DNA from: a virus
Virus record (IMG/VR): IMGVR_UViG_3300002307_000050
Reading direction: 5' to 3' (one strand)
Length of the DNA stretch: 64,000 nucleotides
The notes under the pieces were generated by a model. That model made no database searches. It was not told the origin of the DNA and saw nothing but the letters and a program-made list of their open reading frames with translations. A program made the translations under genes and the position numbers. Of the stretch, positions 14,419-63,483 are shown piece by piece. Within the stretch, counting starts at the first letter, position 1. Every line of letters begins with the position of its first letter.

Positions 14419-14440
14419 TTATGAAGAAAAACTATCTAAA

Positions 14441-15135: not shown

Positions 15136-15150
15136 TAAACTCTTTTTAGT

Positions 15151-15420: not shown

Positions 15421-15425
15421 AAAAA

Positions 15426-28163: not shown

Positions 28164-28718
28164 TTACGCGTTGAGATAGTCAGTGACGACTCCGAGAAAC
28201 GTGCTGAGACCGTTAGATCCGCCGTTCACGAGCCTTCGAACCATTGTCCAGTCCTTCATGTCGCAGCAATGACCGATGTTGCGATCCTTGAAATACTGGG
28301 CGAGTATCTTCGCGGACACGTCTAATTGTAACGCAAGCTCTGGGTGGCACACAAGGTCAATGCCGAACTTGTCTCCGTACGCCTTGTAGTTGTTGTACCC
28401 AGTGAGCTGTATGAGGCCTCTGCCCTTGTACTTCACTCCGTCTCCGGGGCGATAGTTACCAAGGTCGAGTCGCTTCTCGTACGCGCTTCCGTCTGATATC
28501 TCCGCGATCGGCAGGAATGCCTTTCCAACCTCTGTTCGAACGGTCGCCATCGCTCCTATGAGGGTCATTGGCGTGTTGATTCCGATCTCAGTGAGTGCCT
28601 TGTTCACCGCATCGAAGCAGTCAGATGCTCCCTTCTCGTAAGGGGTGTTCTTGTAAAATTTCATGAATTGGTCTTTTGTCATATGTTTTATTGTACGATT
28701 AGAATTTTCCCTCGTCAA
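28164..28718 (-). CDS. endolysin, glycoside hydrolase family 19 (chitinase-like lysozyme), 184 aa
   Basis: GH19 signature VKYKGRGLIQLTGYNNYKAYG and surrounding helices. Confidence 0.7.
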   Translation of the reverse strand: MTRENSNRTIKHMTKDQFMKFYKNTPYEKGASDCFDAVNKALTEIGINTPMTLIGAMATVRTEVGKAFLPIAEISDGSAYEKRLDLGNYRPGDGVKYKGRGLIQLTGYNNYKAYGDKFGIDLVCHPELALQLDVSAKILAQYFKDRNIGHCCDMKDWTMVRRLVNGGSNGLSTFLGVVTDYLNA

Positions 28719-29124
28719 CTTGGCATACTTTCAGACCGAGGTGCTTGCGGTACATCTCCACGCAACGGCCACGGTCTTCGAACACGCAAACCACATCGTA
28801 TTTCTCTGCAATGTGCTCGTTATATACTGCGAGCTTTATGTTCGTATCGAGATCTTTGTTTCCTAGAGGTCTCATGTAGAGCGCCTCGTAATTGAATCCA
28901 TGATTCTCTAGCCACTCCTCAGTATCCTTTCTGCATGACTCATCTCTTCCAGTCACGAACACATGAATCGCAGTACTTCCCGCTCGAAGAGCTTGATACA
29001 GATGTCTCATCTTCGGATCAGGAATATCATCCTTGACAGTAGTGTAATCGTATGGCGTTCGATTTGTTCGATGCGCAATAGTGCCATCGATGTCCCAGAT
29101 GTAGCACTTAATTTTTGTGTCCAT
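28699..29124 (-). CDS. HAD-superfamily phosphatase (polynucleotide 3'-phosphatase or nucleotidase-like), 141 aa
   Basis: N-terminal DxDGT motif (IWDIDGTIA), a downstream VTGR motif and an acidic motif. Confidence 0.65.
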   Translation of the reverse strand: MDTKIKCYIWDIDGTIAHRTNRTPYDYTTVKDDIPDPKMRHLYQALRAGSTAIHVFVTGRDESCRKDTEEWLENHGFNYEALYMRPLGNKDLDTNIKLAVYNEHIAEKYDVVCVFEDRGRCVEMYRKHLGLKVCQVDEGKF

Positions 29125-42889: not shown

Positions 42890-43039
42890 GTGATTAAAAG
42901 AATCTAGCGATGATAATTGACTCGACTATGAGCAACGCACCAGACACGAGAGCACCCATGCAAAAGCCCCGAGTGTAAGCACTGACTCTGATCTTCTTTA
43001 GCTCCACGAACGTCACAACGCACGCACTTGTCTTGTCCT

Positions 43040-43834
43040 TCATATTAAGTTTTGGTATAAAATATAATTTATAAGCAACGACTAATCACTTACACATAGA
43101 GTATATGCTTTTCATATACTATTGTCAACTAATTATGACTGTTAATAACTATATAACATATATATTATAATATGTAAAGCTTAGCTAATGCACACTATCC
43201 ACATATATATACACATGACCCACATGCGAAGATCAATGTCACCGACACTAGCCTTTGACTTGCGGTAACAGATCAAGCAACGTAGCGGATACATAACAAT
43301 CATAATTGACACATGATACTATTATGTTATTGCGGGGGCGGTCAATCGATGGTCACTGAAACAATATATGAAAGCATTTGAACATCATTTGACAATACAT
43401 TGCGTTGTGTTGTTGTGATTGCCAAGGGAAGCCCCCACCATGTTCTGGGGTTTTTTGTTTTTTTTGCGACTAACCCCCGGATTCTGATGCCGCCGATTTA
43501 CGATACTATTGACAAAAGGAAAAGATGTGATTATATATTATTATATATATAGGAGAAGGAGAGATTGAATTTGAGAGTTGACGTGAAGAAGCCTACTTCC
43601 CATTTTAATGTTTTTTACGAGAAAGTAAATCGAAATATTGTGCTGCGATACAGATCGGGTGCTTCTGTGAAGGGGTGATTCGCATCCGAGTTGTGCTTGT
43701 TGGGTATTTGGTTGTATACTTTCACTGCCACCTCTGCATGATTGTCCATGGTTACGGTGGCCCTGACGATTTCGTCTAATTGGTAGGACGCCCGCTGAAA
43801 CGGGAAATGGAGGTTCGACTCCTCACGTCGTCAT
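43040..43834. promoter_or_regulatory. AT-rich divergent control region between the leftward and rightward operons (candidate origin, early and late promoters)
   Basis: Strand switch of all genes here; no ORFs; (at)n and 'atatatatac' repeats; G/C-rich islands (gcgggggcggtcaatcgatggtcac). Confidence 0.45.
43428..43468 (+). terminator. orphan plus-strand intrinsic terminator (ccccca/tgggg stem followed by T6GT8) inside the control region
   Basis: gaagcccccaccatgttctggggttttttgttttttttg; no upstream plus-strand CDS. Confidence 0.4.
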
Positions 43835-43836
43835 AT
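43764..43836 (+). tRNA. tRNA-like element or pseudo-tRNA (GAA/Phe-like anticodon loop, non-canonical anticodon arm); its 3' end overlaps the ATG of the first rightward gene
   Basis: Acceptor pairs ugacgau/gucguca; D-arm cguc-uaauugguag-gacg; T-arm ggagg-UUCGACU-ccuca with the GGTTCGACTCC box. The anticodon arm is only cccg-cugaaa-cggg (4-bp stem, 6-nt loop) and there is an extra nucleotide before the acceptor. Confidence 0.3.
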
Positions 43837-44608
43837 GAAAGAGGGACTCAAAGATCACGCAAACAAATACCGTGCCGTGGAATCGACAGACAAGATGTCG
43901 GTGATTTCGTCTGCGGAGGTGGCGAAGTGGGACTCGGCGAAGCTGCTCAACTTCTACCAGTTCGTGATGCTCTTCTGGGAGGAGGGCAAGTTCAGGTGCA
44001 ACTCCGGCACGATGCACAACGTCTACTACGCCTACGAGACGTATCCCGAGTGGCCGTACAAGGAGTACCTGCATCGCATCAACGTCTGGTTCTCTCCGGA
44101 GGACGGGTACAAGTGGGCTTCGTTCAACTCGCGCTTCATCACGCTCACTCGCGTGGTCAACACGTACGTCAAGAAGCACCCGTCACTCGTGACTCCCGAG
44201 ATAACGGACCTGCTCAAGGACATTCCCGCCTACTCGTGGGTACTCGAGTCCTATAAGACCGTCACGACGAAGATCGGAGCGACGGTCGTCGAAAGGGACA
44301 CGATGTTTCACGACGAACGCAACAACCACATACCGGACAACGATCTCGTGGGATCTCCAGAGAAGAACCTAGTCGAGGCGATGCTGAAGGTCACGGACAT
44401 CTACAGGACCGTGGCTAACTCCATAAAGAAGGAGGACCTCGAGAAGATGACCGTCGCCCAGAAGCTCTCAACGCTGCAGCGACTGTCGTTCATCATCAAG
44501 GAGGTGAAGGGATTCAAGCCAAACCCCGCGGTGTTTCAGCAGATCAACATTTATAAGGACGGTCGAGAGGAGCTTGAGAAGGCGATCCTCGACTTTGGAG
44601 CGGAGTAA
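43835..44608 (+). CDS. hypothetical protein (257 aa); candidate small terminase subunit by position only
   Basis: First gene of the rightward block, immediately upstream of TerL, sharing its elevated GC. Confidence 0.35.
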   Translation: MKEGLKDHANKYRAVESTDKMSVISSAEVAKWDSAKLLNFYQFVMLFWEEGKFRCNSGTMHNVYYAYETYPEWPYKEYLHRINVWFSPEDGYKWASFNSRFITLTRVVNTYVKKHPSLVTPEITDLLKDIPAYSWVLESYKTVTTKIGATVVERDTMFHDERNNHIPDNDLVGSPEKNLVEAMLKVTDIYRTVANSIKKEDLEKMTVAQKLSTLQRLSFIIKEVKGFKPNPAVFQQINIYKDGREELEKAILDFGAE

Positions 44609-44779: not shown

Positions 44780-46384
44780 ATGAACATCAAGCGAATGCGC
44801 GAATACTACGAGAATCCCGACGGAGAGTACATGAAGAAGCTACGTCAGCGGGCTCAGAACGTGAAAACGATGTCGAACGACCCGCTCGCACGAGCGAGAA
44901 TGGTGCTCGACGTGTATTCGGTGGACTTCGAGAGGTTCTGCGAGGACTTCCTCTTCCTCATCATCCCTGAATACGGTGATGCCATCAAGCCCTTCTTCAT
45001 GTTCGAGTACCAGAAGAGGATCGTGCGGAAGATCGCGGATGCCGAGATGAGCGGAGAGGACATGGAGCTGCTCTGCGACAAGCCCCGAGGCATGGGACTG
45101 ACTTGGCTCATCGTCGCGTACTTCTACTGGCGATGGCTCTACACCCCGAACTGGTCAGCGTTCGTACTGTCGCGCACCGAGACCGAGGTCGACGACGGAT
45201 CCGCGATCCCGAACAACTCGATCTTCGGAAAGCTCCGATGGCTCATCGCCCACACCCCGAAGTGGATGCTTCCGGACGGGTTCGAGGCGAAGGGAAAGAA
45301 GGGAAACTCGACTGACTCCACGCTTCGACTCATCAACCCGGCCATGAACTCATCGATCGTGGGATCTTCAACGAACTCGAACGCGGGTCGCTCTCGCCGA
45401 TACTCGATCATCCTCATCGACGAGTGCTTCTCGATCGAGCACTTCAACGACGTGTACCGAGCGCTTCAGTCCGTTTCACGTGTAAAGCTGTTCATCTCGA
45501 CCACCAAGGCGGGCGCCGTCTATCGCGGGTTCAAGGACCTCTGCGAGAAGGCCGGAAACTATATCTCGCTCGTCTGGAAGGACCATCCGTGGAAGGATCA
45601 GGAGTGGTACGAGGAGCAGCTCGTGAAGGCCGAGTTCGATCCCGAGGTCATGAAGGAAATCGACGTGTCATACGCAGTGAACCCGAAGATGCAGTACTAT
45701 CCGCAGGTGTCCATGGCGAAGATCGAGTCCATCGAGTACGATCCGCAGAAGCCGATCTATACGGGCCTCGACTTCGGATCCGGAGACGTCACCGTAATCG
45801 TATACGCGCAGTTCACCGGCAACTCGCTCAACATAATCGACGTCTACCACAACAGCGGAAAGGGAGACTGCAAATGGTACGCCCCGTTCCTCAACCCGGA
45901 GATCAAGGACTCGGACTTCCTATACAGCTACAACCCAGTTCAGCTCGACTTCATCGCGAAGGTCCGCAGATGGCGCAAGGCGACTGCCAACTTTGGCGAA
46001 GTCGCGCATACGATCAAGTCGATGGCCGACAATCGATCGATCTCCGACGTGCTCGGAAAGCTCGGCATCAGAATCATGGTCAACACGTACGCGATCGAGT
46101 ACGAGCCTCGAAGACTAGCCACTTCCCAGATGCTTCCGAAGACCGTCTTCAACAAGGACTCTGCCGGTGCGATGGAGCTGTACGATGCGATCACTAACTC
46201 TCGAAAGATGTCAGTCGACAACGGAAACCCGAAGCACGACGGAGAGGTCGGAGACTACCGCTCGGCGTTCGAGAACCTCTGCGCGAACATCGGTAGAATC
46301 TTCAAGAACCAGAGAGGCGACATCGGAGGAGGACTCAACGACGGCGGATTCGTCAGTGCGCTTATTAGGAATCTCAAAGTGTGA
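44780..46384 (+). CDS. terminase large subunit (534 aa)
   Basis: Walker-A-like KPRGMGLT, Walker B YSIILIDECF, and RNaseH-like nuclease motifs (TGLDFGSGDVTVIVYAQ). Confidence 0.7.
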   Translation: MNIKRMREYYENPDGEYMKKLRQRAQNVKTMSNDPLARARMVLDVYSVDFERFCEDFLFLIIPEYGDAIKPFFMFEYQKRIVRKIADAEMSGEDMELLCDKPRGMGLTWLIVAYFYWRWLYTPNWSAFVLSRTETEVDDGSAIPNNSIFGKLRWLIAHTPKWMLPDGFEAKGKKGNSTDSTLRLINPAMNSSIVGSSTNSNAGRSRRYSIILIDECFSIEHFNDVYRALQSVSRVKLFISTTKAGAVYRGFKDLCEKAGNYISLVWKDHPWKDQEWYEEQLVKAEFDPEVMKEIDVSYAVNPKMQYYPQVSMAKIESIEYDPQKPIYTGLDFGSGDVTVIVYAQFTGNSLNIIDVYHNSGKGDCKWYAPFLNPEIKDSDFLYSYNPVQLDFIAKVRRWRKATANFGEVAHTIKSMADNRSISDVLGKLGIRIMVNTYAIEYEPRRLATSQMLPKTVFNKDSAGAMELYDAITNSRKMSVDNGNPKHDGEVGDYRSAFENLCANIGRIFKNQRGDIGGGLNDGGFVSALIRNLKV

Positions 46385-46423: not shown

Positions 46424-48001
46424 ATGGAAAAAAATAAAACGTATTTCGGTTCTGATGCACGCAACAAGCTCAAGGTCGGTGTCGACACAATTTTCAACTC
46501 AACAGCGCCGACTCTCAGCGCGAACGGACGAAACGTCTGCTACATGAAATGGGGGATGATCCCGTACATCTCGAACGACGGAGTATCGATCGCCCGAAAG
46601 GTGAACCCAGAGAACTTCGTAGAGCGAATGGGAGCCGACCTCATCAAGCAAGTCTCAGAGCAGACCAACGCGGATGCAGGAGACGGAACAACGACATCAA
46701 TCATCCTCGCGCACTCTATGATCGAGGAAGGAATGAAGCTCATCGATGCAGAGGGATCGAAGGTCAACCCAATGCAGCTCCGTCGCGAGATGGAAGCAGC
46801 ATCAATCAAAGTCATCGATGCACTCAAGGATCGAGCAACGAAAGTGACGAGCCTCGAAGACCTCATCAAGATCGCGACTATCTCAGTCGAGGATCCAGCG
46901 ATCGGAAAGCTCATCGCAACTGCTATCGAGGAAGCGGGCGCCAACGGATCCGTCTACGTTGAGGAATCAACGAAGCCGGGAATCACAGTCGAGAAGATCG
47001 AAGGATACGACTTCCCACAGGGAGCGATCTCTCCGGGAATGATCACGAACTTCGACAAGCTCGAGACAGTGATGGAAAACCCAGTTATCCTCGTGACCGA
47101 GAGACCACTCTTCTGGAACACTGCGCTTCAGCAATTCTTCGACACGGTTCTCCAGATGGGAAAGCGAAACATCCTCATCATCGCCGACGAAGTTCACGAA
47201 GACGTGATTCGATTCGCAGCGACTAACACCCAGAACAAGAAGTTCACATGTGTCATCGTGAAGAAGCCGATGCAAGCCGAGTTCATCGAAGACATCGCGA
47301 AGATCACGGGCGCGACTGCAATCACGAAGGAAAAGAACTTCATCAACCCAAAGCCTGAGTATCTCGGTACTGCTCGAAAGGTTGTAGTGAAGCGCGACAA
47401 GTCTACGACAATCATCGGTGGCGCGATCTCTCCAGAGGCGCTCGCAGAATATGTCGAGGCACTCAAGACTCAGGTGAAAGATGCTGAGCCTGAAGATCCT
47501 GCAGTTGGAAAGATGACAGAACGCATCGCAAAGATCACAGGAGGAATCCAGATGCTCAATGTCGGATCTGCAATCGAATCAGAACTCAAGTATCTCAAGA
47601 TGAAAGTCGAAGATGCGATCAATGCGACAAAGGCAGCAAAGGAAGAAGGATTCGTAGCGGGAGGAGGTTCTGCACTCATGCACATCGCGTATGAAGTTTT
47701 CGGAGGAGTAGAGAAGAATGACGGTGAAAAGGTTGTCGTCGCCGCATGTTCAGCGCCATATTCTCAGATTCTCTACAACAGTGGGGAAAAAGGCGACACG
47801 ATGTTTGATGTCAGCCAGAAAAACTCAGGATACGATGCCCTCAAGCATGAATTCGTGAGCGATGTCATCGAACGCGGCATCATCGACCCAGTTAAAGTGA
47901 CTCGATCAGCGTTCAAAAACGCATCGAAGCTCGCAGGTCTCTTCCTCACGACAGAGTGCGTTGTGGAAGATCTCCCAGAAAAAGGTGCATTTGACAGATA
48001 A
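46424..48001 (+). CDS. groL: GroEL/Cpn60 chaperonin (525 aa)
   Basis: GDGTTTSIILAHSMIEEG ATP-binding motif, equatorial, apical and intermediate domain patterns (AVKAPGFGDRRK-like region), and GGGSAL..A motif. Confidence 0.85.
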   Translation: MEKNKTYFGSDARNKLKVGVDTIFNSTAPTLSANGRNVCYMKWGMIPYISNDGVSIARKVNPENFVERMGADLIKQVSEQTNADAGDGTTTSIILAHSMIEEGMKLIDAEGSKVNPMQLRREMEAASIKVIDALKDRATKVTSLEDLIKIATISVEDPAIGKLIATAIEEAGANGSVYVEESTKPGITVEKIEGYDFPQGAISPGMITNFDKLETVMENPVILVTERPLFWNTALQQFFDTVLQMGKRNILIIADEVHEDVIRFAATNTQNKKFTCVIVKKPMQAEFIEDIAKITGATAITKEKNFINPKPEYLGTARKVVVKRDKSTTIIGGAISPEALAEYVEALKTQVKDAEPEDPAVGKMTERIAKITGGIQMLNVGSAIESELKYLKMKVEDAINATKAAKEEGFVAGGGSALMHIAYEVFGGVEKNDGEKVVVAACSAPYSQILYNSGEKGDTMFDVSQKNSGYDALKHEFVSDVIERGIIDPVKVTRSAFKNASKLAGLFLTTECVVEDLPEKGAFDR

Positions 48002-48019: not shown

Positions 48020-48289
48020 ATGAATATCGACATAAAGAATTGGTGTGTGAAGATTTGCAAGAAGTACGACCTTCGTTGCTTCTATCTTCCCAAGACCAAT
48101 TCTTTTGTCTTACATAAGGAGGGTCGCGCAGTTCAGCACTTCAACGAAACTCAGTTCTACCAGAAACCGAAGATGGTTCGTGAGAAGGAGATGACGCCGC
48201 TCGTTAAACTTGGCCTCGTTCACAACTTAGATGAGCGAGTGAAGAACCAATTATTTCTCAATCGAAAGCTTGGGAAGCTAATTTATTAA
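48020..48289 (+). CDS. hypothetical protein (89 aa) between GroEL and the portal
   Basis: ORF. Confidence 0.35.
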   Translation: MNIDIKNWCVKICKKYDLRCFYLPKTNSFVLHKEGRAVQHFNETQFYQKPKMVREKEMTPLVKLGLVHNLDERVKNQLFLNRKLGKLIY

Positions 48290-48293
48290 AGCT

Positions 48294-50285
48294 ATGGCGA
48301 CAACAGCAGAGAACAAAGACAAAGTGAAATTGGAAAACGTCCGTCAGCCTCGACACGAGGAACTGGAGGTTGTTGGTGCGATCTTCGATCGTTACTATCG
48401 ATGGCGATCTCAGCGTGACGGTACGATAGACCAATTCCAAGGGCGCTCACTCGAGCAGTTCCTCACTACGTCTCGCGAGCTCTTCTGGAACTCGACAGTA
48501 ACTCCAAGCAACGACCTCTCTGCGCTTGATCTCAGCCTATCGATCGGATTCATCCGAAAGGAGGTGTGGGACTTCGCTTCTCGACTCGTCTCTCAGGACT
48601 TTCGCGGAAGAATGGATGGAGAAAACCTTGATACCTACGGTGTTAAGGTTCTTCAGGCCATGTACGACAAGTGGCGCTTCAAGTCCAACGACAAGGTTGA
48701 GAAATTCTGGCAGATCCTCTACGGAGCGGTGAACGGAACCGTCGTGGAGTTCGTCGGATACAACGACTCAAAGGTTACCCACCGATATCTTCGCGAGTAC
48801 GACAAGGCGAAGGGAGGATACCGAATCGAAGAGAAGGATGACTACTACTGGAACGACGTGTGGACTGAAATCGCGCCCGTCGAGGACATATACTTCTCGA
48901 AGCTCTGGGAACGCGATGCTCAGAGACAGGGACGTTTGCTGTGGCGCACGCAAGTCGACTGGAAGGACTTCCAACGCGACTTCCATATGTACGAGAACGC
49001 AGAGTACGTATATCCGGGAAACCAGATCAGCGACGACTCGCTCTACTTCCGACTCCTTCGCGGGTCAGGCGTTACTTCGACAGACAAAGTTGAGATCCTC
49101 AAAGAGTACGACGTCGTTCAAGACCGATTCACAATCGTCGCGAACGGAGTATGGCTCAACCCACTCAAGGGAAAGCTTGGAATTGCCCCAATGCCTTTCA
49201 ACCACAAGCTCATGCCTTTCGGCGTGACTCAGTGGAAGGGAATCGACGAGAAGTTCGTGTACGGAATGTCGATGCCATTTGAATTGAAGGACTATCAGAA
49301 GATCCTCAATACCTCGATGACGATGCTCGTCGAGCAGGAGCTCCGCGACATCGACCCGCCGATCATCTCGAGCGACTTCGAGTCTCCTCAGCTCATCTTC
49401 GGTCAGCACAAGGTCATTCCGGTCAACGACGTGAACGCGTACAAGGTCATGGAGACCAAGCCCGCTTCGAACTCGTTCTTCAACATGGTCAACTCGCTCC
49501 AGTCACTCATGTCCGCTCAGGCGAACGGGGGAACTCAGCAGATCGCCCCTTCACGTCAGCCAAAGTCTGCTCGCGAGGCGATGCAGATGGCTCAGCTCAA
49601 GCAGGAGTCTCTCGGAAACGCATTGCTCATGTACTACAACATGCTCCGTCAGGAAATGACTCTCATGCTGAAGACCGCAGTCCAGTTCTACCCAACCAAC
49701 AAGTACGCGAAGATCAACAACCGCATCGTTCGCGCGATCAAGATCCCAGACACGTCTCTCACCACTGGTGGAGTCGGAAACCTCAACGTTCGATTCGTGC
49801 ATAAGAAGCAGGACGACCTCATCACGTACTTCGAGTCAGTCGAGAAGTCTCTCCAAGATGGACGTCAGACCGAGATCATCGAATGTCCCATCGAAGTGCT
49901 TCAGGACCTCGACTTCATAATCCATGAGATCGAGCTCAAGCCCGCGAAGGCTTCTGAGATCGAGAAGGCAGCTTGGATGGAGCAGATGTTCACTCCGATG
50001 ATGCAGTACTTCGTTCCGATGGGAATCGCGGACCCTGCGAAGGTCTACCTTCAGCTCCTCGAGAAATACGGAGAGCACCCTGCGGACTACACCTCAGACA
50101 AGGTTCTACCTCAGCTCATGGCGACATGGGGAAACGAGATGAACTTCCAGATGCCAGACCCAAAGAAGCCAGACTCAATGAAGCAAGGCGCTCTCGGACC
50201 TCAGACTGGAAACCTTAATCAATCTAATACCGGCACTCGATTCGGAGGTCAGGGAGGAGCTCCCATCCCCGCACCCGCTGCCTAA
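48294..50285 (+). CDS. putative portal protein (duplicate of 236..2227)
   Basis: Exact duplicate at offset +48058. Confidence 0.5.
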   Translation: MATTAENKDKVKLENVRQPRHEELEVVGAIFDRYYRWRSQRDGTIDQFQGRSLEQFLTTSRELFWNSTVTPSNDLSALDLSLSIGFIRKEVWDFASRLVSQDFRGRMDGENLDTYGVKVLQAMYDKWRFKSNDKVEKFWQILYGAVNGTVVEFVGYNDSKVTHRYLREYDKAKGGYRIEEKDDYYWNDVWTEIAPVEDIYFSKLWERDAQRQGRLLWRTQVDWKDFQRDFHMYENAEYVYPGNQISDDSLYFRLLRGSGVTSTDKVEILKEYDVVQDRFTIVANGVWLNPLKGKLGIAPMPFNHKLMPFGVTQWKGIDEKFVYGMSMPFELKDYQKILNTSMTMLVEQELRDIDPPIISSDFESPQLIFGQHKVIPVNDVNAYKVMETKPASNSFFNMVNSLQSLMSAQANGGTQQIAPSRQPKSAREAMQMAQLKQESLGNALLMYYNMLRQEMTLMLKTAVQFYPTNKYAKINNRIVRAIKIPDTSLTTGGVGNLNVRFVHKKQDDLITYFESVEKSLQDGRQTEIIECPIEVLQDLDFIIHEIELKPAKASEIEKAAWMEQMFTPMMQYFVPMGIADPAKVYLQLLEKYGEHPADYTSDKVLPQLMATWGNEMNFQMPDPKKPDSMKQGALGPQTGNLNQSNTGTRFGGQGGAPIPAPAA

Positions 50286-50293
50286 ATAAAATC

Positions 50294-50539
50294 ATGATCT
50301 CACGAAAGATAAAGAAAGTCGTTCTCAGCATGGACATCTTGAAAGAGATGCTCACTCAGGGCATGGCAGTGAACTACACTGTCACTCAGGGTATCCCTGA
50401 AGATGCCGTGATCATCAGCATGGAGAAGAATCGCGACGAGAAGACATACACGCTCATCGTCCATAGCGACACCTTCAAAGAGGCTCATGACAGCACGGTG
50501 CTCGACACCATGGACATCATCGTTACAAAGATAAACTAA
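50294..50539 (+). CDS. hypothetical protein (duplicate of 2236..2481)
   Basis: Exact duplicate. Confidence 0.35.
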   Translation: MISRKIKKVVLSMDILKEMLTQGMAVNYTVTQGIPEDAVIISMEKNRDEKTYTLIVHSDTFKEAHDSTVLDTMDIIVTKIN

Positions 50540-50544
50540 ATACC

Positions 50545-51075
50545 ATGAAGTTAAATCCCAAAATACTCAAGAGAATACTAGAGTCGAACAGAGAGTTCTT
50601 CGAGAAGGAGCTTCTGACGAACGAAGAGCTCGAGAAGCAGTTCGACAAGAAGAGAAGTTTCTTCAACAACCTATTCATCCGAGACATCATCGGGTACATT
50701 CCCGCATCGCTCAACGAGCCAGTGCTCAGGATATTCGAAGAGCATGGAGAGCTGCTCGAGCGTTGGCTCCTCTGGCAGTCATGGTACATCAACCGAAAGA
50801 TCCTGAAGGATCCGGAGAGGATCCAGTTCTTCGACGGAGTTCTCCTGTATCTCAAGACACTTCACACGATGGCATCGACGAAGAAGCGCATCAAGACGAC
50901 AGAGGCAATATACTCAGCGCCAAAGCCGGACAAGCCGTGGGTCGATGAAGCATTATCAGACATAGAATTTTTCACTAAAAATGCAAAAGATCAAATCAAT
51001 AAGCGCGCCCAAGAGAGTGGCGCCGAAAATGCCGAAAACGATCTCTCAGAAGTCGCCAAAGTTATCGAAGGCTAA
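50545..51075 (+). CDS. hypothetical head-module protein (duplicate of 2487..3017)
   Basis: Exact duplicate. Confidence 0.4.
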   Translation: MKLNPKILKRILESNREFFEKELLTNEELEKQFDKKRSFFNNLFIRDIIGYIPASLNEPVLRIFEEHGELLERWLLWQSWYINRKILKDPERIQFFDGVLLYLKTLHTMASTKKRIKTTEAIYSAPKPDKPWVDEALSDIEFFTKNAKDQINKRAQESGAENAENDLSEVAKVIEG

Positions 51076-51134
51076 GGCATCGAAATCAGTCGGAGTGTCG
51101 TTTGGAAAGAGCAAGAAAAGCATGTAATCCACAG

Positions 51135-51163
51135 GAGCGCCCTTTACGGGGCGTTTTTGTTTT
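51135..51163 (+). terminator. rho-independent terminator (duplicate of 3077..3105)
   Basis: Exact duplicate. Confidence 0.6.
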
Positions 51164-51200
51164 GTGGTACAATTAGGGAAGCAATAAATCTGATACACGA

Positions 51201-51743
51201 ATGAAGAATTTTTATGAAATTTTAGGTGTCGCAAAGACGGCCTCCAAAGAGGAAATCAAAAAGGCTTTTCACGTGCTCGCTCACAAGCATCACCCAGACA
51301 AGCCCGGAGGAAACGAGGCAGAGTTCAAGAAGTGCAACGAGGCGTACCAGACTCTCAGCGACGACTCGAAGCGATCGCAGTACGACATGACCATCGGTCA
51401 CGGAAACGGATTTCCATTCACGTCTCACGGCTACTCTCCTCCAAGGAGACAGACTCACACCTACACGACATACACCAACAACTCAGGATTCTACTATCGA
51501 GCATCGCAGCAACAGGAGAGTAATGAGGATTTCGCCGATCGAATGCAGAAGATGTCAGACATGCTCAAGCAGCAGATGGAAAACATGAGGTATAGTCAGG
51601 CTCAGCAACAGAAGACAGCTAATGACTACGCGGACGAAATTCGGAAGAGCACGGAGAGAACCGAGAAGATGTACAGGGCGAAACGTGCATTCAGTATGGG
51701 AGATTTTATTATTTTTGACGATCTAGATATAAACGACTTATGA
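51201..51743 (+). CDS. J-domain co-chaperone (duplicate of 3143..3685)
   Basis: Exact duplicate; HPD motif. Confidence 0.8.
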
Positions 51744-52132
51744 AAATAGACATAAAGACAATTCCGCACAAAGACCAGAGATACCCGACAGTGGGCGACT
51801 GGTGGTTCGACGACGAGACCAAGACACTCAACATACGAGTTTCCGACATGGGAGACGTCGAGATGGAGTACCTCGTGATTGACCACGAGCTTCGCGAGGC
51901 GATGATCTGCAACCATCGCGGAATCAGCGAGAAGGCGATCAGCAATTTCGACATCCTCTTCGAGAAGATCCGCGCAGAGAATCCTGAGATCATCGGAGAC
52001 ATGGAGCCGGGAGACATGATCGGTGCTCCGTATCACATGGCGCATAAATTCGCGACAGACGTGGAGAAGGTAACCGCAGCTCAGCTTGAGGTCGACTGGG
52101 ACAAATATTCAGAGAAGGTAAACTCTCTATGA
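51740..52132 (+). CDS. hypothetical protein (duplicate of 3682..4074)
   Basis: Exact duplicate. Confidence 0.4.
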
Positions 52133-52413
52133 TCGGAATCGCCGAGCTCATCAAGAACAGGCCAGTAGAATCTGCCGAGGTCATTTCAGCTAGAAAGGAG
52201 ATCCTCGACAAGTTCATAAAGGTCATCAACGACGGCCGTAGGATGGCGGGTTACAAGCCGTACCCTGCGAGCTTCGTCGTCATCAAGATGTACAAGGCGG
52301 GATACAAGTCAGTTAGTCAGCTCTGGATGTTCTGGGGTTCGTGCAGTGATGCGCAGAATTTCAGTTCATACTGGCACTGGAAACTAAAGAAGGAAAACTA
52401 TGAAAAACAATAA
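52129..52413 (+). CDS. hypothetical protein (duplicate of 4071..4355)
   Basis: Exact duplicate. Confidence 0.4.
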   Translation: MIGIAELIKNRPVESAEVISARKEILDKFIKVINDGRRMAGYKPYPASFVVIKMYKAGYKSVSQLWMFWGSCSDAQNFSSYWHWKLKKENYEKQ

Positions 52414-52602
52414 AGATCATTTATACATCGAGCTCACGGAGGTGAAGTCGTACATGAAGGGCATTTCGCCAAAAACTTCTACGTACCAAAATCTCGAAAA
52501 GCGAAAAAACGAGATCGAAAAATTACTCGAGCAGGACACAAGTCCGGTTCTCAGCATCAAGTCAAAGGTTTCGGCGTAAAAATTACCCTATATGCAAGGA
52601 AA

Positions 52603-52634
52603 AAGCACTGAGTATCTCTATTCAGTGCTTTTTT
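52603..52634 (+). terminator. rho-independent terminator (duplicate of 4545..4576)
   Basis: Exact duplicate. Confidence 0.65.
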
Positions 52635-53181
52635 AGTATTCGTATTTGATTCGTATCGTATTTTGCCTCTTTATTTCTGGAGTTGTTACGACCCCCCTAC
52701 CCCCCAAAGACTAAAAAATCTTTTGAAAGCAAGAAGTCGTCACAACAGGCTCTTTATCCCCGTCGGTGCAATTTATAGGATGCACACCCATGACGTTCGC
52801 AGACACGCTTAAAGTCCTCTGCTCTAACCCCGGACTATAAAAACGAAAAAACCCTTTCACAAGGGCTTATATGTTCTGACTTTTAAGGTCAGCAAGAGGG
52901 ACTAGCCCTCCATATAAGCGCCCCATGAAAAGGTTCTTTAAAATCTTTCCGCGTGAGGTGCTCCTTGTGGCAGGTGACGAATCAACTGCACACAAAGTAT
53001 AGCACCATCTCTCTACCAGTGTCAGTAGAGTTATCCACAATAGGTAACGCCGTTTGCTATTATTTTGTGACAGTCGTATAATGTTTTCGTATAGGACTGC
53101 CGCCGAGTCAAGAAATTAGGGCGTGTGCGTTTAATATAACCTCGGGCGTGAATGATGGGCCGCCGCCATCGGAAAAAATGT

Positions 53182-53811
53182 ATGGATCCAAAAAAGCTTG
53201 TAGATGATTTTGTGGAAGGAAAGATTACCGAAGACCAGTTCATCGCGGAAAAAGAAAAACTCTCCGCCGAAGATCTTGCGAAGTTGGATGAGGCTGCTAA
53301 GTCAGCAATCCCAACTGCTACTCAGAAATTGATTGACGTAAGACGCGGTACAAAAAAGATCGAGGAAGCAGCACCGGCTGCACCAGATTTTGGAAAGAAG
53401 TTCCGTGAAGAAAATTTAGCTAAAGCCAAGCAACGTATTGCTACTGAAATCGCGTTTGAAAAGGAAGAGGATCGCATCGCATTCCTTCAGGAGTTCGAGC
53501 AGAGAGATCCGGGAAGCGTAGACGTGGAAAATATCGTTCGCGATATGAAGTCTCACTATGCAGCCAAGCATCCAGAGGAATTCTTCGACCTCAAGAAGAG
53601 ATCAGATGAACTCAAGGCAAATGCAGACGAATTCACTAGCATGGGAGCAGGGCCAAACGGCACAGGTCAGGGTGGTGGTGACGGTGGTGGAAAAAAGAAG
53701 TACTCTCCAGAGGCGATCGCGTTGTATAACGCAGGAAAGGCTCGCGGAAGCACTCTCACTATCGATCAATACCAAGCTCAAGTTGAGGCAGAGCGCAACA
53801 AGAGCAAGTAA
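53182..53811 (+). CDS. putative scaffolding protein (duplicate of 5124..5753)
   Basis: Exact duplicate. Confidence 0.35.
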   Translation: MDPKKLVDDFVEGKITEDQFIAEKEKLSAEDLAKLDEAAKSAIPTATQKLIDVRRGTKKIEEAAPAAPDFGKKFREENLAKAKQRIATEIAFEKEEDRIAFLQEFEQRDPGSVDVENIVRDMKSHYAAKHPEEFFDLKKRSDELKANADEFTSMGAGPNGTGQGGGDGGGKKKYSPEAIALYNAGKARGSTLTIDQYQAQVEAERNKSK

Positions 53812-53917
53812 AATTTTTCTCTCTAGAAAATTATCTATAAGCGATTCGGGAAATCCATGCGGGTTACTGGTCGCTTATTTTTAATTTTATTAGCCTAATT
53901 TTTAGAAGAAAAACATT

Positions 53918-54670
53918 ATGTTTATTCCAAGAAAAGAATTACTCGACCAATTTTTGGTCAAAGCAGTTGTAGGAAACGGTCTCACTATCGCAATCGGCGA
54001 TGCGATCATCCTCAACCGCGTTGGAACAGGAGTATTCACTGTAACAATCGCCTCACCTGCTGTGTTCTCACAGACAGCTCACGGCCTCGTTGCGGGAGAT
54101 GCAGTCCAGTTCCAGACAAGTGGCGCTTTGCCTACAGGTCTCGTAGCAGGTACAACCTATTACGTCATCGCGGCAGGTCTCACATCGAACGCGTTCGAAG
54201 TCTCAGCTACTCTCGGTGGCTCAGCGGTGAACACATCAGGCTCACAGTCTGGTACTCACTCTATGTACACGATTACCCCAACAGTCAAAGGTGCTGCGAA
54301 CACAACTGCCGAAATTCTCGGTACTGTACGCTCCATCCTTGGTCCAAACGCAAAGCCGCTCGAAGTTACTTCGTACACGACTGCATTGGATAACACTGTA
54401 AACGCACAGGTCATGGTTGAGTTCTTGCCTTCTCAGATGGATACGACTTACCTCGCAGACCTCTCAGCAGCAGCGAACACTACTCCGAACTCTAACCTCA
54501 TGGGTTGGTTCAACCTCTCGACTACCCTCAACGGTACGCTTGACGAGTCTTCATATGTCGCGACAAACTCTACGACATACAGCTCAACGAAGCAGTTCTT
54601 CTCTTACGGAGTGAACCCTTCGAACTCAAGTCAGGTCATTGGTATCTGGGCATCACGCGCACGCATTTAA
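53918..54670 (+). CDS. virion protein with the shared 80-aa domain (duplicate of 5860..6612)
   Basis: Exact duplicate. Confidence 0.45.
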   Translation: MFIPRKELLDQFLVKAVVGNGLTIAIGDAIILNRVGTGVFTVTIASPAVFSQTAHGLVAGDAVQFQTSGALPTGLVAGTTYYVIAAGLTSNAFEVSATLGGSAVNTSGSQSGTHSMYTITPTVKGAANTTAEILGTVRSILGPNAKPLEVTSYTTALDNTVNAQVMVEFLPSQMDTTYLADLSAAANTTPNSNLMGWFNLSTTLNGTLDESSYVATNSTTYSSTKQFFSYGVNPSNSSQVIGIWASRARI

Positions 54671-54714
54671 TCCCGTCGACTTTTATTTTATTAGCCTAAT
54701 TTTACTAACAAATT

Positions 54715-55827
54715 ATGGAACCATTTTATCAAGGCCCATTAGACGTATTCCTCGTAGGACTTCGCGCTGAATTCAACGCAGTCGAAGATCAGGGAAAACG
54801 TTCACTTCAGGCTCTCATCGATTACTCGATGATCGGAACTGAATCAAAGGCAAACGCCTTGTACCTCAACGTCTCAGGATCAACTCCGGAAGGAATGATC
54901 GCTGTATGGCGCCACACTGGAACTACAGGGGTCAACGGACCAGTAGGAAAGCGTGCAGCAGGTGATCGCTACCCTAACGCTCAGTACCTCCGCACATGGG
55001 AGACTACTGTGTACGATCCAGACTCTCAGGATGCCGACCAGATCGTCGTCCCAGAGGAACGCCTCGCAAAGGAAGCGACTGTCTACAAGACTTACCTCAA
55101 CCGCGGTCAGAAGCTCTACGAAAAGTTCGTTCGTCAGAACGTACTCGACACATTCGAGCTCTTGAACCTCGCTTGGACTCTTCCAACCTCATACCCTTCA
55201 GCGAAGTTCTTCGCGAAAGGATCTCAAGGTCTCGATGGAAACTACACTGCTCTCAACGAGCGTTTGATTTCCACTCAGCACGCCCTTGCGAACGGAGGCA
55301 CTACTCGAAGCAACGCTGTCCAGACATCTGGAAACGCAGCGCCATTCTCAACGACAACTTACTTTGCTGCTAAAGAGCAGGGAGGAGCCACTGTTGACGA
55401 TGTTGCAGAGCCAATGCCAATGTTCGGAGGAATGCTCGACATCTACGTTCCTAACTACAACGGTATGGTGAAGGCAGTGAAGGACATCAACGAATCTATG
55501 TGGGAGCCGGGCGGAGCGAACAACGACATCAACGTGTTGAAGTCTGGATTCGAACGCATCGTCACTTCTCCATACATCGGTACTTCATACTACATCCCTA
55601 CGATCTCTAACCTCCGCTCATGGATCTTGGCTGATCGCAGCTCTGTAGACCCACAGATCGGTACTGGTTTCGTGCGCGTAGAGTTCTGGCCTATGAGTTC
55701 AAAGGTTGAACGTGTAGATCCAAACGATGCTATCGCTTACAAGGTTAAGCAAGAGTACTCATACGGATACGTCGACTGGAGAAACTTCCTCGGTTCGAAG
55801 GGAGACGGTGCTGCCTACTCAGGCTAA
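54715..55827 (+). CDS. putative major capsid protein (duplicate of 6657..7769)
   Basis: Exact duplicate. Confidence 0.45.
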   Translation: MEPFYQGPLDVFLVGLRAEFNAVEDQGKRSLQALIDYSMIGTESKANALYLNVSGSTPEGMIAVWRHTGTTGVNGPVGKRAAGDRYPNAQYLRTWETTVYDPDSQDADQIVVPEERLAKEATVYKTYLNRGQKLYEKFVRQNVLDTFELLNLAWTLPTSYPSAKFFAKGSQGLDGNYTALNERLISTQHALANGGTTRSNAVQTSGNAAPFSTTTYFAAKEQGGATVDDVAEPMPMFGGMLDIYVPNYNGMVKAVKDINESMWEPGGANNDINVLKSGFERIVTSPYIGTSYYIPTISNLRSWILADRSSVDPQIGTGFVRVEFWPMSSKVERVDPNDAIAYKVKQEYSYGYVDWRNFLGSKGDGAAYSG

Positions 55828-55856
55828 ATTATCAACGATAATATTGAAGATAATTT

Positions 55857-56507
55857 ATGAACACACCACTACCAAAGAACTACCAGTCTCCGGGCTCCGA
55901 CTTCTCTGCGAAGTCTGAGATCAACTCAAATGTATTCATTTGGGAAAAGAACGGACGTGGGTACGCGATGCAGTGCAAGACTACTACTGGCTCGGGAGTG
56001 ATCCCTCCAACTGACACGAACCTCTTCGGACAGGGTTGTGAAATCATGATCGTTGATAGCGGCATGAAATTCACAAACTCTGCCCAAGACGGTCTCGCGC
56101 CGGTCTGGTCAGGAATTGCGATCACCAAGAAGGTGTCTCTCACTTCAGCACAGATCCTCGCGCTCAATACCACAGCAGTGGAGCTCGTAGCAGCTCCATC
56201 AGCGGGGTATGTCCTCGATATCGTCTCAGTCGTCGGTCGCATGAACTTCCTCACGGCAGCGTATGCAACAAACACAGAGCTCGACATCATCGACACGACA
56301 TTGGGTACTGTCTTGTTCAAAGACACTGCCACATTGCTCGCGGCGGCAGCGACGAAAGTCGTGAAGGTAGAGCCGAACATCGCATCGAACGTTGGCCTCG
56401 CGGTCACTTCGGCGGGATCGGTATCTGCCAAGGTTGCGACGGGTAACCCTGCCACTGGCGCGGGAACCCTCGACATCTACATTACTTACTCGATAATTCC
56501 ACTCTAA
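55857..56507 (+). CDS. virion structural protein (duplicate of 7799..8449)
   Basis: Exact duplicate. Confidence 0.4.
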   Translation: MNTPLPKNYQSPGSDFSAKSEINSNVFIWEKNGRGYAMQCKTTTGSGVIPPTDTNLFGQGCEIMIVDSGMKFTNSAQDGLAPVWSGIAITKKVSLTSAQILALNTTAVELVAAPSAGYVLDIVSVVGRMNFLTAAYATNTELDIIDTTLGTVLFKDTATLLAAAATKVVKVEPNIASNVGLAVTSAGSVSAKVATGNPATGAGTLDIYITYSIIPL

Positions 56508-56511
56508 TCCC

Positions 56512-56796
56512 ATGAATATCATCACAACGCAAAGTGAACCGATCGAATTCCTTCTCCGCAGAGGACGAAAGATTTTGATCACTCCTACAGTTCCGGTAAC
56601 CGTCGACGAAGCAGAATATGTAATCCTCGACTCACGTCTTGGGTCACAGATCAAGCTTGTTGCCGACGAATCGAAACCTGCGGAAGCCGTTCAGGCTCCA
56701 GTCGTCACAGAAGAAGTCACAGCCCCAGTAGTAACTGCCCCAGTGGTAGAAGCTCCGAAAGTTGAGGCTCCTGCGCAGACGAACGTAGAGGGTTAG
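56512..56796 (+). CDS. small structural protein (duplicate of 8454..8738)
   Basis: Exact duplicate. Confidence 0.35.
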   Translation: MNIITTQSEPIEFLLRRGRKILITPTVPVTVDEAEYVILDSRLGSQIKLVADESKPAEAVQAPVVTEEVTAPVVTAPVVEAPKVEAPAQTNVEG

Positions 56797-56868
56797 TCGT
56801 TTACTCCCGAGCTTTAGGGCTCGGGGAATAAGTGCCTAATCCATTATCAACTTAACCAGTAAAAAATT

Positions 56869-57270
56869 ATGTCTAGAGATAAATCAGGTGTCACAAAAGT
56901 TCTCGATGGTGCAAGTGCGCTAGGTATTGGTGCCGCAGTAGACGTCTCCGACTGGAGGCACGTAGAGATGCAGATATCCTCTTCAGGAAGCGCTGCATTC
57001 ACGCTCAAATTTCAGATCTCGCAGTCTGCTGACAAGCCAGACTTCAACTCGGCAGCATCAGCGACCAATCGATGGACCTATGTCCAAGCGAAAAACCTCG
57101 ACACTGCAGCGACGATCGACGGTAGCACCGGCGTTGTGTTCGCAGCGGATGCAGTGGTCAACGTAGAGATCAACACAAACCTTATAAAGTGGATCTGCCC
57201 TAAGATTACTGCGTACACGCAAGGAAAGGTCTTCTGCGACCTCTCAGCTTGCAACGACAGTCTCCAATAA
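56869..57270 (+). CDS. virion protein (duplicate of 8811..9212)
   Basis: Exact duplicate. Confidence 0.4.
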   Translation: MSRDKSGVTKVLDGASALGIGAAVDVSDWRHVEMQISSSGSAAFTLKFQISQSADKPDFNSAASATNRWTYVQAKNLDTAATIDGSTGVVFAADAVVNVEINTNLIKWICPKITAYTQGKVFCDLSACNDSLQ

Positions 57271-57271
57271 C

Positions 57272-58147
57272 ATGACTGAGCTAGAAAAGACAAACAAAGA
57301 GCTCAAGGAATCGCAAGACAAACTCACCTCAATCATGGGTGCGATCAATCGTGAGACCGTAGAGCTTCAGAACATATCTGAAAAAAAGTTGGAAGCTGAA
57401 AAGGCCTACAACGATTTTGTCTCTACCTCAGAATCAGAAAAGACTCGAATCAACGGAGACATCTCTAGCATTACCACCGAATACGAGACAAAGAAATCGG
57501 CATTCGAAAAGGACATAGTTTCGATAGAGTCAGATCGAGATACTCGGGTAGAATCAGCGAAGACTGAGATCGATCAGATCAACACATCAGTGGGAACCGC
57601 TCAGACGAACGCTGATGCAAAGATCGCGCTCATCGAGTCGAGCACGAAGGAAATCGAGGCTTCTCATAAGAAGGACATCGAGATACTCGTCGCGGAAAAG
57701 GAATCGCTCACGCTCGCCAATGACACGTTCAAGACTGAAAACACGAAACTCAAAAATGAAAACAGTGAACTCACTGAGGAAAATAAAAAGCTGCAAACGA
57801 ACATATCCGACAGCGTTGCGGAGCTCTCTCGACTAGAGACAAAGATTCAGCCTCTCAAGGATGAAATCGGCGGACTCGAAACGGAGGAATCCACGCTTAG
57901 GGGGAACAGAGATGCAGTTGCGACTGACCTTCGCGAGAAAGAGAAGAAGGTCGAAGAGATTATCCAACTCACAACAGAATCTAATTCCAAGCTTGCAGAA
58001 ATCATCGCTAAGATCGACAAGAACTCACCTGAGTACGAAAAGTATGTAAACGACAAAGCATCTCTTTTCAATCAGACCGAGGCACTCAAAAAGAAAGAGA
58101 TCTTCATCAGAAACCGATACAAGCAAATTGGAATTGCTTTCGAATAA
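57272..58147 (+). CDS. coiled-coil structural protein (duplicate of 9214..10089)
   Basis: Exact duplicate. Confidence 0.45.
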   Translation: MTELEKTNKELKESQDKLTSIMGAINRETVELQNISEKKLEAEKAYNDFVSTSESEKTRINGDISSITTEYETKKSAFEKDIVSIESDRDTRVESAKTEIDQINTSVGTAQTNADAKIALIESSTKEIEASHKKDIEILVAEKESLTLANDTFKTENTKLKNENSELTEENKKLQTNISDSVAELSRLETKIQPLKDEIGGLETEESTLRGNRDAVATDLREKEKKVEEIIQLTTESNSKLAEIIAKIDKNSPEYEKYVNDKASLFNQTEALKKKEIFIRNRYKQIGIAFE

Positions 58148-58153
58148 CAAGCA

Positions 58154-62011: not shown

Positions 62012-62017
62012 AAAGCA

Positions 62018-62476
62018 ATGGCATTTAACACAGAAACAAAAAGCGATATTGGTCTCAATAACGTAAATAACACTTCTGACATGCAAAAGCCGGTATCAAC
62101 GGCACAGGCAGCGGCGATCGCTGCGATAGTCACCAGTGTAAACTCGATGTACGTGAATGGGACTCTATACACGGGCGTGAAGTCTTGCTCGATGAACAGA
62201 AATGTCGCATCGGGCGGATCGGTCGTGTTCTATCTCACAGATGATGGAACGGCTTCAGGAAACGCGATATTCCAAAACAATGTTTTCAAGTCTACCGCGA
62301 ACTTCTGGGCCGATGACGTCAGTAACCAGTATCAGATGGGAAGCTACTCATTGTCAGCAGATAGGAAGGTACTTACCTTAACGGTAAATAGACTCGGAAG
62401 CGTGCTTCTGGGTATAATACAGTTCTTGGCAAGTGCTACTGGAACCACGATTTACATGACCATAAGAGGAAACTAA
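62018..62476 (+). CDS. tail-fibre tip protein (duplicate of 13960..14418)
   Basis: Exact duplicate. Confidence 0.5.
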   Translation: MAFNTETKSDIGLNNVNNTSDMQKPVSTAQAAAIAAIVTSVNSMYVNGTLYTGVKSCSMNRNVASGGSVVFYLTDDGTASGNAIFQNNVFKSTANFWADDVSNQYQMGSYSLSADRKVLTLTVNRLGSVLLGIIQFLASATGTTIYMTIRGN

Positions 62477-63193: not shown

Positions 63194-63208
63194 TAAACTC
63201 TTTTTAGT

Positions 63209-63478: not shown

Positions 63479-63483
63479 AAAAA

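Follow-up and report, generated by a model that had tools for sequence, protein, structure and literature searches.

A tRNA-like cloverleaf directly before the start codon of the first packaging-module gene, in the divergent control region of a phage from an uncultured clade

We have analysed a 64,000-nucleotide (nt) stretch of viral DNA, the IMG/VR record IMGVR_UViG_3300002307_000050 (hereafter the window), and in particular the region 43,040-43,834, which separates the leftward from the rightward genes of a phage. A first-pass annotation had read this region as a candidate replication origin combined with a small regulatory RNA. It did not mention that the last 71 nt of the region are filled by a transfer RNA (tRNA)-like cloverleaf, which ends just before the start codon of the first rightward gene. 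On our account, the region would be a divergent transcription-control region that includes a candidate origin and carries a tRNA-derived leader placed on the AUG of the first late gene. We give this account as a whole a probability of about one half. The features on which its central part rests are as follows.

43,764-43,834, plus strand: cloverleaf, probably derived from a tRNA, ending just before the ATG at 43,835 (ARAGORN, Rfam and minimum free energy fold)
43,727-43,761, plus strand: leader hairpin GCCACC...GGTGGC, just 5' of the tRNA-like element
43,835-44,608, plus strand: first rightward gene, 257 amino acids (aa), immediately 5' of the large terminase gene (small-terminase position)

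ARAGORN called 43,764-43,834 as 'tRNA-???' with an undefined 2-nt anticodon, and the Rfam tRNA model matched the same bases at 33.9 bits, against a gathering score of 29. The cloverleaf is the minimum free energy (MFE) fold of the 71 nt and takes up 42% of the ensemble (z = -2.24). Its acceptor stem (7 base pairs, bp), its D arm with G18-G19 and its T arm (GG-UUCGACU-CC) are canonical. A decoding tRNA has a 5-bp anticodon stem, a 7-nt loop and a 3-nt anticodon; the anticodon arm of the window element has 4 bp and the 6-nt loop CUGAAA. CCA is not encoded. The D arm is identical at 22 of 24 nt to the D arm of the tRNA-Gln of the phage (27,578-27,649), and the element probably descends from a copy of that gene. 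The tRNA-Gln (UUG) itself, on the minus strand at the convergent gene junction, is genuine; it is also without an encoded CCA and must therefore use the endonucleolytic 3' pathway. Between the TGA at 43,796 and the ATG at 43,835 there is no in-frame start. Shine-Dalgarno sequences are absent from all 39 genes examined, all of which start at ATG. Their upstream regions are A/T-rich, with the exception of the first late gene, which has a G+C-rich folded RNA before its start.

We compared the window with L002, L004 and L032, which are loci with the same architecture, with the more distant loci L003, L033 and L034, and with about 20 added IMG/VR loci. In L002, L004 and L032, a matching acceptor stem, D arm and T arm stand at the same place, and in all four loci a single base, the discriminator, separates the acceptor stem from the ATG. 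The three relatives have a stem of about 40 nt in place of the anticodon arm, and decoding is therefore not the conserved function. Neither ARAGORN nor Rfam called a tRNA in these three loci. A hairpin with a different stem sequence occupies the position of the leader hairpin in the relatives.

A covariance model built from L032 and L004 only was searched against L002, the window and 26 other loci. It found L002 at 52 bits and the window at exactly 43,764-43,834, and it gave no match in the 26 other loci. MAFFT misaligned the 5' half of the window element and the D arm of L002, and a model-based alignment was used instead. In this alignment, 96.9% of the cells are paired, compared with 38-55% when the partners are slid, and there are 10 double-sided pair changes, compared with 0-2 in the controls. 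RNAalifold independently recovered the same four arms. In terms of single nucleotides, G18-G19, the UUCGA(C/G)U T-loop and the G53-C61 pair are retained across the loci that have the element. Considering these results together, we regard it as very probable that a conserved structured RNA exists at 43,764-43,834.

The decoding part of the element was free to vary, while the acceptor-T-arm stack and the elbow were kept. Because these conserved parts are those read by tRNA-processing enzymes, we propose that the element may be processed. In the proposed mechanism, the host sigma-70-type RNA polymerase would transcribe the early operon leftward from TTGACA-17-TATACT (43,128-43,100), and the packaging and structural operon rightward from the TTGACA at 43,509, with a possible additional start from the TATACT box at 43,715. 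Between these promoters, the AT-rich tract, degenerate DnaA boxes and a G/T-rich motif would bind host DnaA, and this stretch would be the best candidate for an origin. The rightward leader would end in the cloverleaf, followed by the discriminator base and the AUG of the first late gene. RNase P would then cut at the 5' end of the cloverleaf (43,763/4), and an RNase Z-type enzyme would cut at the discriminator or one base after it (43,833/4). In this case, the products would be a free tRNA-like RNA of about 70 nt and a leaderless messenger RNA (mRNA) that starts with (U)AUG. We put forward such processing by RNase P and an RNase Z-type enzyme as a tentative possibility. That the phage has made a 'punctuation' signal out of a copied tRNA gene and joined it to the start codon of the first packaging gene is, in our view, conceivable and doubtful.

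The closest known system is the t-element of plant mitochondria. The t-elements are non-canonical cloverleaves with the T-arm motif GGTTCRANYCC (PMC1920247). Their cleavage by RNase Z and RNase P generates the ends of mRNAs, one of them an rps4 end at +2 (PMC1920247). RNase Z makes its cut either at the discriminator or one nucleotide 3' of it, and the mRNA can start at or next to the AUG (PMC1920247). The corresponding T-arm sequence is GGTTCGACTCC in the window and GGTTCGA(C/G)TCC in the relatives. The phage element shares with t-elements, and with the tRNA punctuation of animal mitochondria, a non-canonical cloverleaf, a conserved T arm and an adjoining mRNA (PMC1920247). On the other hand, it belongs to a bacteriophage and lies directly on the start codon of the first packaging-module gene, its cleavage is predicted from sequence, and in its relatives the anticodon arm is not lost but enlarged to a long stem.

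Animal mitochondrial mRNAs are leaderless. In the thrU-tyrU-glyT-thrT-tufB operon of Escherichia coli, tRNAs are co-transcribed with a protein gene and separated by tRNA-processing nucleases. This operon is alike in that tRNA-shaped RNA stands 5' of an open reading frame (ORF) on one transcript. However, its tRNAs decode, and a spacer and a ribosome-binding site are present, whereas the phage element cannot decode and no leader would remain.

Several points weigh against the punctuation proposal and the account built on it. The match of the window to the model of its relatives is weak (16.3 bits, E = 0.17). The element is known from four genomes only, of which two are near-identical, giving an effective sample of three lineages, and the alignment used for covariation was fitted to the model. 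The acceptor stem contains a C-A mismatch in L032, and the base of the T stem is mismatched in the window. Gene callers start the proteins of L002, L004 and L032 at a GTG or ATG within the T arm, behind a GGAGG-like motif (L002 5,001-5,030; L004 792-827; L032 4,077-4,112), which adds 9-11 codons; the element could be partly coding in these three loci, and the window lacks an in-frame start of this kind. In local structure, the start codon ranks fifth to seventh of 39 genes and is no outlier, and for this reason we dropped the accessibility of the start site as an argument for obligatory processing. Finally, we infer every cleavage step, and the presence of an RNase Z in the host is assumed.

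Two other explanations of the element have been weighed against processing. The element could be a phage tRNA gene copy in decay, probably paralogous to tRNA-Gln, which has no present function and adjoins the ATG by accident. The 6-nt anticodon loop and the short anticodon stem, the mismatched T stem, the mismatch that L032 has in its acceptor stem, the nearly identical D arm of tRNA-Gln and the presence in only four known genomes all speak for decay. However, the surrounding noncoding DNA has diverged strongly (about 52% mean column identity) while the four helices were kept by the 10 double compensatory changes. Moreover, the tRNA-elbow nucleotides are retained, and the one-base gap between acceptor stem and ATG is the same in all four loci despite unrelated acceptor sequences. 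We therefore regard a functionless remnant as unlikely. Alternatively, the cloverleaf could act uncut in cis, as a stabiliser of the late mRNA or as a limiter or timer of its translation, possibly by binding a protein that recognises tRNA. The MFE fold of the window leader pairs CUUUCA (43,719-24) with UGAAAG (43,836-41), in a helix that encloses the leader hairpin and the cloverleaf and buries the start codon. The 80-nt segment upstream of the gene is the second most stable among the 39 genes, and the leaders of L003, L033 and L034 are different yet highly structured. The closing helix, however, is predicted in the window only and not in L002, L032 and L004, and we rejected it as a conserved means of burying the start codon. 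The accessibility of the start site is not exceptional, and the elbow and the exact spacing from discriminator to ATG point to tRNA-processing enzymes over generic structure. An uncut role in cis seems to us rather unlikely. A phage attachment site (attP) in a tRNA gene was also considered and rejected: no integrase was found with Pfam and PHROGs, and the 5' strands of the stems co-vary with the 3' strands, although an attP would require conservation in the 3' part of the tRNA only.

In L003, L033 and L034, the same gene is preceded by a different conserved leader, which begins AAAAA(T/G)TCCTTTCAC (L003 about 1,497-1,590; L033 about 4,087-4,170; L034 about 3,945-4,025). By eye, the interleaved helices UCCUUUCA/UGAAAGGA and a co-varying second stem suggest that this leader forms a pseudoknot.

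The cloverleaf closes a region in which gene orientation switches and the GC content is low. Bases 1-15,942 of the window are identical to 48,059-64,000, an exact repeat, and the window therefore represents 1.33 copies of a circularly permuted phage genome of 48,058 bp. Rightward from 43,835 and around the circle, the genes are on the plus strand as far as about 27,283; leftward from 43,043 to about 27,664, they are on the minus strand. The first-pass annotation had correctly placed the strand switch of all genes here: 43,044-43,834 is the sole divergent gene junction of the genome, and the convergent junction lies at about 27.3-27.7 kb. The region has 38% GC, compared with 48.7% for the genome. 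Its features in terms of transcription are as follows.

43,039-43,190, no strand: AT-richest tract of 100-150 nt in the genome, with a GC content of about 21% (sliding windows across the 48,058-bp unit), overlapping promoters and possibly a DNA-unwinding region
43,100-43,128, minus strand: predicted leftward promoter of the early operon, TTGACA (43,128-43,123), 17-nt spacer, TATACT (43,105-43,100); 11 of 12 consensus matches, joint best in 20 kb
43,142-43,171, plus strand: rightward promoter-like TTAATA-18-TATAAT; the same position in L002 and L032 overlaps a perfect DnaA box
43,509-43,545, plus strand: predicted distal rightward promoter, TTGACA (43,509-14) and an AT-rich -10 with a spacer of 17-19 nt; aligns with sites called in L032 and L002
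43,715-43,720, plus strand: TATACT box within the conserved GTATACTTT (43,714-43,722), invariant in the four close loci

The region contains 10 sigma-70-type promoter matches, an enrichment over the 3.7 +/- 2.0 expected. Leftward matches of the form TTGAC(A/T)-17-TATACT, with 10-11 of 12 consensus positions, were called in the window, L002 and L032; in L002 the leftward -10 of the window is kept at the aligned position, and the called site lies about 50 nt further right. For the TTGACA at 43,509, the tool called no promoter in the window, where the -10 is off-consensus, and it called TTGACA-18-TAATAT in both L032 and L002. The L032 version of the box at 43,715 was called as TGTACA-17-TATACT, and the box at 43,714-43,722 possibly serves a proximal rightward promoter as its -10. 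Promoters of the Bacteroidota type (TAnnTTTG) do not occur in the control region of the window, L002 or L032. Considering the strand switch, the promoter enrichment and the leftward and rightward promoters that recur in L002 and L032, the description of 43,044-43,834 as a divergent transcription-control region is well supported by its sequence. A divergent promoter region by itself is ordinary phage architecture.

The G/C islands that had been reported are present as four runs (GGGGG at 43,335, CCCCC at 43,433, GGGG at 43,447 and CCCCC at 43,474). The reported AT-rich iterons stood up in part: the AT-richness is real, and the iterons are not, as no repeat family in the region exceeds two copies and tandem-repeat scores are marginal. 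An iteron-type origin has at least 3 direct initiator-binding sites of 17-22 bp, whereas only two-copy repeats occur here and no initiator gene was found. The two best repeat pairs, ATACTATTG(T/A)CAA and TATATATTAT..., are located at promoter-like sites, and the AT strings quoted in the annotation are the -10 and spacer parts of such sites.

With respect to replication, the relevant feature is a group of short boxes next to the AT-rich tract.

43,186-43,224, plus strand: four degenerate DnaA-like 9-mers in one orientation, TAATGCACA, CTATCCACA, ATATACACA and TGACCCACA, at spacings of 9, 12 and 9 nt

The stretch of about 43,040-43,490 could be a replication origin, at which DnaA bound to phased boxes opens the AT-rich tract; this would be compatible with promoter function, and the G/T motif might then serve in helicase loading or priming. 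We hold this reading tentatively, as possible and short of even odds. In its favour, the AT-richest tract of the genome lies here, as an adjacent unwinding region should, and the four boxes (starting at 43,186, 43,195, 43,207 and 43,216; one with one mismatch and three with two) are in one orientation and in phase at a roughly helical spacing. One of the four boxes is homologous to a perfect box in L003, where the window CTATCCACATATATA corresponds to TTATCCACATATATA. In 352 kb of clade loci we counted 31 perfect TTATCCACA boxes, roughly ten times as many as expected at random; the seven control regions of the close loci contain five of them, where 0.5 would be expected (P ~2e-4). Of 14 related loci, 12 have at least one perfect box 5' of the packaging genes. 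L025 (1,316-1,346) has three perfect boxes and L014 (3,032-3,051) has two, in the same intergenic region and at an exact spacing of 11 bp, and in both loci the G/T motif, GCGACCATCGGT(A/T)GGGGTTT, follows the boxes within 40-150 nt. Furthermore, no initiator, helicase, primase, polymerase or integrase was detected among the phage proteins with Pfam and PHROGs; lacking replication proteins of this kind, the phage must recruit the replisome of the host, and reliance on host DnaA would be logical. We also observed a perfect TTATCCACA box in L033 (4,219-4,227), 3 nt 5' of the ATG of the gene in small-terminase position.

On the other hand, the window region has no perfect box and no box of the consensus TT(A/T)TNCACA, most relatives have a single box, and neither iterons nor clustering or enrichment of GATC was found in the region. 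The boxes overlap promoter hexamers and could be transcriptional operators. The minimum of the cumulative GC skew, proposed as a check of the origin, does fall within the region (43,312 raw, 43,253 detrended), and the maximum at 28,416 is the other strand switch. On the plus strand, the minus-gene block has a G-C skew of -0.114 and the plus-gene block one of -0.029; the skew is the sum of a gene-orientation effect and a uniform excess of C over G. As orientation alone explains the V shape and places both extremes at the strand switches, the skew check carries little weight. The region is a plausible candidate origin: the skew minimum and the AT-richest tract agree with the first-pass annotation, and the iterons and a consensus DnaA box are missing.

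Among known systems, P1 oriR carries flanking DnaA boxes. The phage region resembles DnaA-dependent origins such as oriC and P1 oriR in having boxes in helical phase, an AT-rich tract and a divergently transcribed intergenic position, but its boxes are degenerate only, it has no 13-mer or iteron repeats and no GATC clustering, and it is known here from sequence. Clusters of DnaA boxes in phage noncoding DNA are not always origins; the injection-stop region of T5 is a large noncoding region with a conserved cluster (bioRxiv 10.1101/866236). The T5 region is alike in its conserved DnaA boxes in phage noncoding DNA. However, it has eight boxes, paired inside inverted repeats within the terminal repeat, and no such layout is found here (bioRxiv 10.1101/866236).

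The other claim of the annotation concerned a strong plus-strand terminator with no gene before it, which was taken to end a small RNA. The features at this place are as follows.

43,433-43,467, plus strand: weak terminator-like hairpin (5 bp, 8-nt loop) and T-run, specific to this phage
43,446-43,479, plus strand: alternative hairpin pairing GGGG (43,447-50) with CCCC (43,474-78) and enclosing the T-run; -15.1 kcal/mol, z = -3.9
43,423-43,492, plus strand: clade-wide G/T-rich noncoding motif with the core ACCATGTTCTGGGGTTT...TTTTT...CTAACCCCC, which holds the T-run of the 'terminator'

The plus-strand hairpin CCCCA-N8-TGGGG (43,433-43,450) exists and is directly followed by a U-run, TTTTTTGTTTTTTTT (43,451-43,465), as in an intrinsic terminator; no credible plus-strand gene was found 5' of it, as had been noted. 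It is the strength that fails. Stable terminator stems typically have at least 6-8 bp and are more stable than -8 kcal/mol, whereas this stem reaches -7.7 kcal/mol (z = -0.64 against shuffles). Terminator-like sites occur at chance frequency, as the same scan called 18 in 20 kb compared with 17.3 +/- 4.2 expected. No terminator-like site was called at the aligned place in L002 and L032. In the alignment, L002, L032 and L004 have G-runs in place of the CCCCC 5' arm and keep the T-run and the preceding GGGG, so the hairpin is unable to form there. A G-run and a C-run flanking a T-rich stretch are also present in these three loci. The G/T motif is on the strand of the packaging genes and 5' of them in every instance, and an nhmmer profile of 10 instances also matches L018, L012 and L005. 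The 'orphan terminator' thus appears, on sequence comparison, to be a weak hairpin that has arisen in this lineage within a conserved G/T motif.

These results bear on three further explanations. The annotation proposed a short noncoding transcript from about 43.1 to 43.45 kb, as a small or antisense regulator of the early operon; we took it as an RNA of about 290 nt, from about 43,178 to the terminator at 43,433-43,467. A promoter-like TTAATA-18-TATAAT at 43,142-43,171, about 260 nt 5' of the hairpin, the very good T-tail of the hairpin and the lack of any plus-strand gene between the two are consistent with it. Nevertheless, besides the minimal and unconserved hairpin and the chance frequency of such patterns, the 291-nt candidate (43,178-43,468) folds no better than shuffles (z = +0.59) and has no Rfam match. 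The RNA would overlap no leftward gene and is therefore not antisense to the early operon. We consider a small RNA ending at the hairpin unsupported and improbable. Late control as in lambda, where the PR'-tR' 6S RNA unit provides a comparison for a hairpin 5' of late genes, would require a constitutive promoter and a short RNA stopped at the hairpin unless a Q-type antiterminator acts. A terminator-like site 5' of the late operon, promoter-like sites before the hairpin and the lack of a gene before it are similar to intrinsic terminators and to the lambda unit. However, the stem here has 5 bp only and is not kept in relatives, no Q-like antiterminator was found with Pfam and PHROGs, and another conserved promoter lies 3' of the hairpin at 43,509; we consider such control highly improbable. 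The G/T motif could also be the site at which the terminase of the clade recognises or cuts DNA (cos or pac). Loci with 48-82% identity in the large terminase (TerL) usually have a single copy of it, always 5' of the packaging genes and in their orientation, and the G-run and C-run around a T-rich spacer in the four close loci give it partial symmetry. But the ends of publicly assembled contigs show no clustering at the motif, its distance from the packaging genes varies from about 390 to about 1,250 nt, and it always lies beside DnaA boxes, which would fit an origin equally. A packaging site is unlikely on this evidence.

Two micro-ORFs in the region were considered. One, which we rejected as a conserved gene, starts at the ATG at 43,440 within the G/T motif (MFWGFLFFLRLTPGF); it meets a TGA at codon 3 in L002 and a TAG at codon 9 in L004, and L025 and L014 carry ATCGGT instead of the ATG, while the frame is nevertheless kept in several loci. 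The other, 43,565/43,583-43,678 behind 'aggagaaggagag', is doubtful, since L004 is without it and it would start with GTG, compared with ATG and no Shine-Dalgarno sequence in all 39 genes examined. Its first 8 codons (43,583-43,678) are the same in L002 and L032, where the identity is at the nucleotide level. The remaining features of the region are as follows.

43,581-43,607, plus strand: 27-nt block ACGTGAAGAAGCCTACTTCCCATTTTA, identical in L002 (about 4,741-4,767) and L032 (about 3,835-3,861), absent from L004
About 43,205-43,330, plus strand: C+A-rich tract (L002 4,380-4,470; L032 3,470-3,550)

The block ACGTGAAGAAGCCTACTTCCCATTTTA is the beginning of the doubtful GTG micro-ORF; its flanks have diverged in the three loci, and it has a small hairpin GAAG...CTTC. 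The C+A-rich tract, located between the DnaA-box area and the G/T motif, has almost no T on the plus strand and is most marked in the relatives.

In terms of the wider genome, run SRR6220867 holds the same sequence as a 48,080-bp contig, and nucleotide searches with the window gave no matches to known phages. The encoded phage functions include a large terminase, an endolysin, RusA-like resolvases and a full-length GroEL-like chaperonin. The large terminase has hundreds of homologues, which define an uncultured clade of 45-52-kb phages with the terminase gene followed by a GroEL-like gene. For the 257-aa protein encoded at 43,835, only three homologues besides itself were found among 5.8 billion proteins. 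It has no recognised family, a PDB search was empty, and scans of IMG/VR and JGI found nothing. Weak homologues lie immediately 5' of the terminase across the clade, and we therefore speak of a gene in small-terminase position.

Neighbouring genes provide some further observations. The full-length GroEL-type chaperonin gene (46,424-48,001, plus strand) is directly 3' of the large terminase gene, a position kept across the clade, and its best PDB match is the reconstructed ancestral chaperonin of Fibrobacteres-Chlorobi-Bacteroidetes (E = 2e-95). In L032, a gene with a DnaJ domain also lies a few kb downstream. A relative of the product of 44,780-46,384, P0098, is a 934-aa large terminase with intein and homing-endonuclease domains (PF14528, PF14890). 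The minus-strand gene at 28,699-29,124 encodes a stand-alone phosphatase domain of polynucleotide kinase-phosphatase (PF25109, E = 3e-38); the polynucleotide kinase-phosphatase of T4 repairs cleaved tRNA. The sole match in species-representative genomes is L035 (JAYSNU010000027.1), a 5-kb contig with 49% terminase identity that was binned in a 'Candidatus Nomurabacteria' metagenome-assembled genome. This binning could be a hint of the host or an artefact.

In summary, in this study, we describe a tRNA-shaped element that is kept by compensatory changes, is unable to decode and abuts the start of the first packaging-module gene. Additionally, the DnaA boxes and the G/T motif 5' of the packaging genes provide a testable candidate for an origin or a packaging site for the whole clade of 45-52-kb phages, which carry a GroEL-like gene and lack recognisable replication proteins. 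If the element is cleaved, these phages would make leaderless mRNAs with tRNA-processing enzymes, a mechanism so far known from organelles. If the punctuation proposal is true, the translation of late genes would depend on the tRNA-maturation machinery of the host, and the element would be the first counterpart in a bacterial virus of mitochondrial tRNA punctuation and t-elements.

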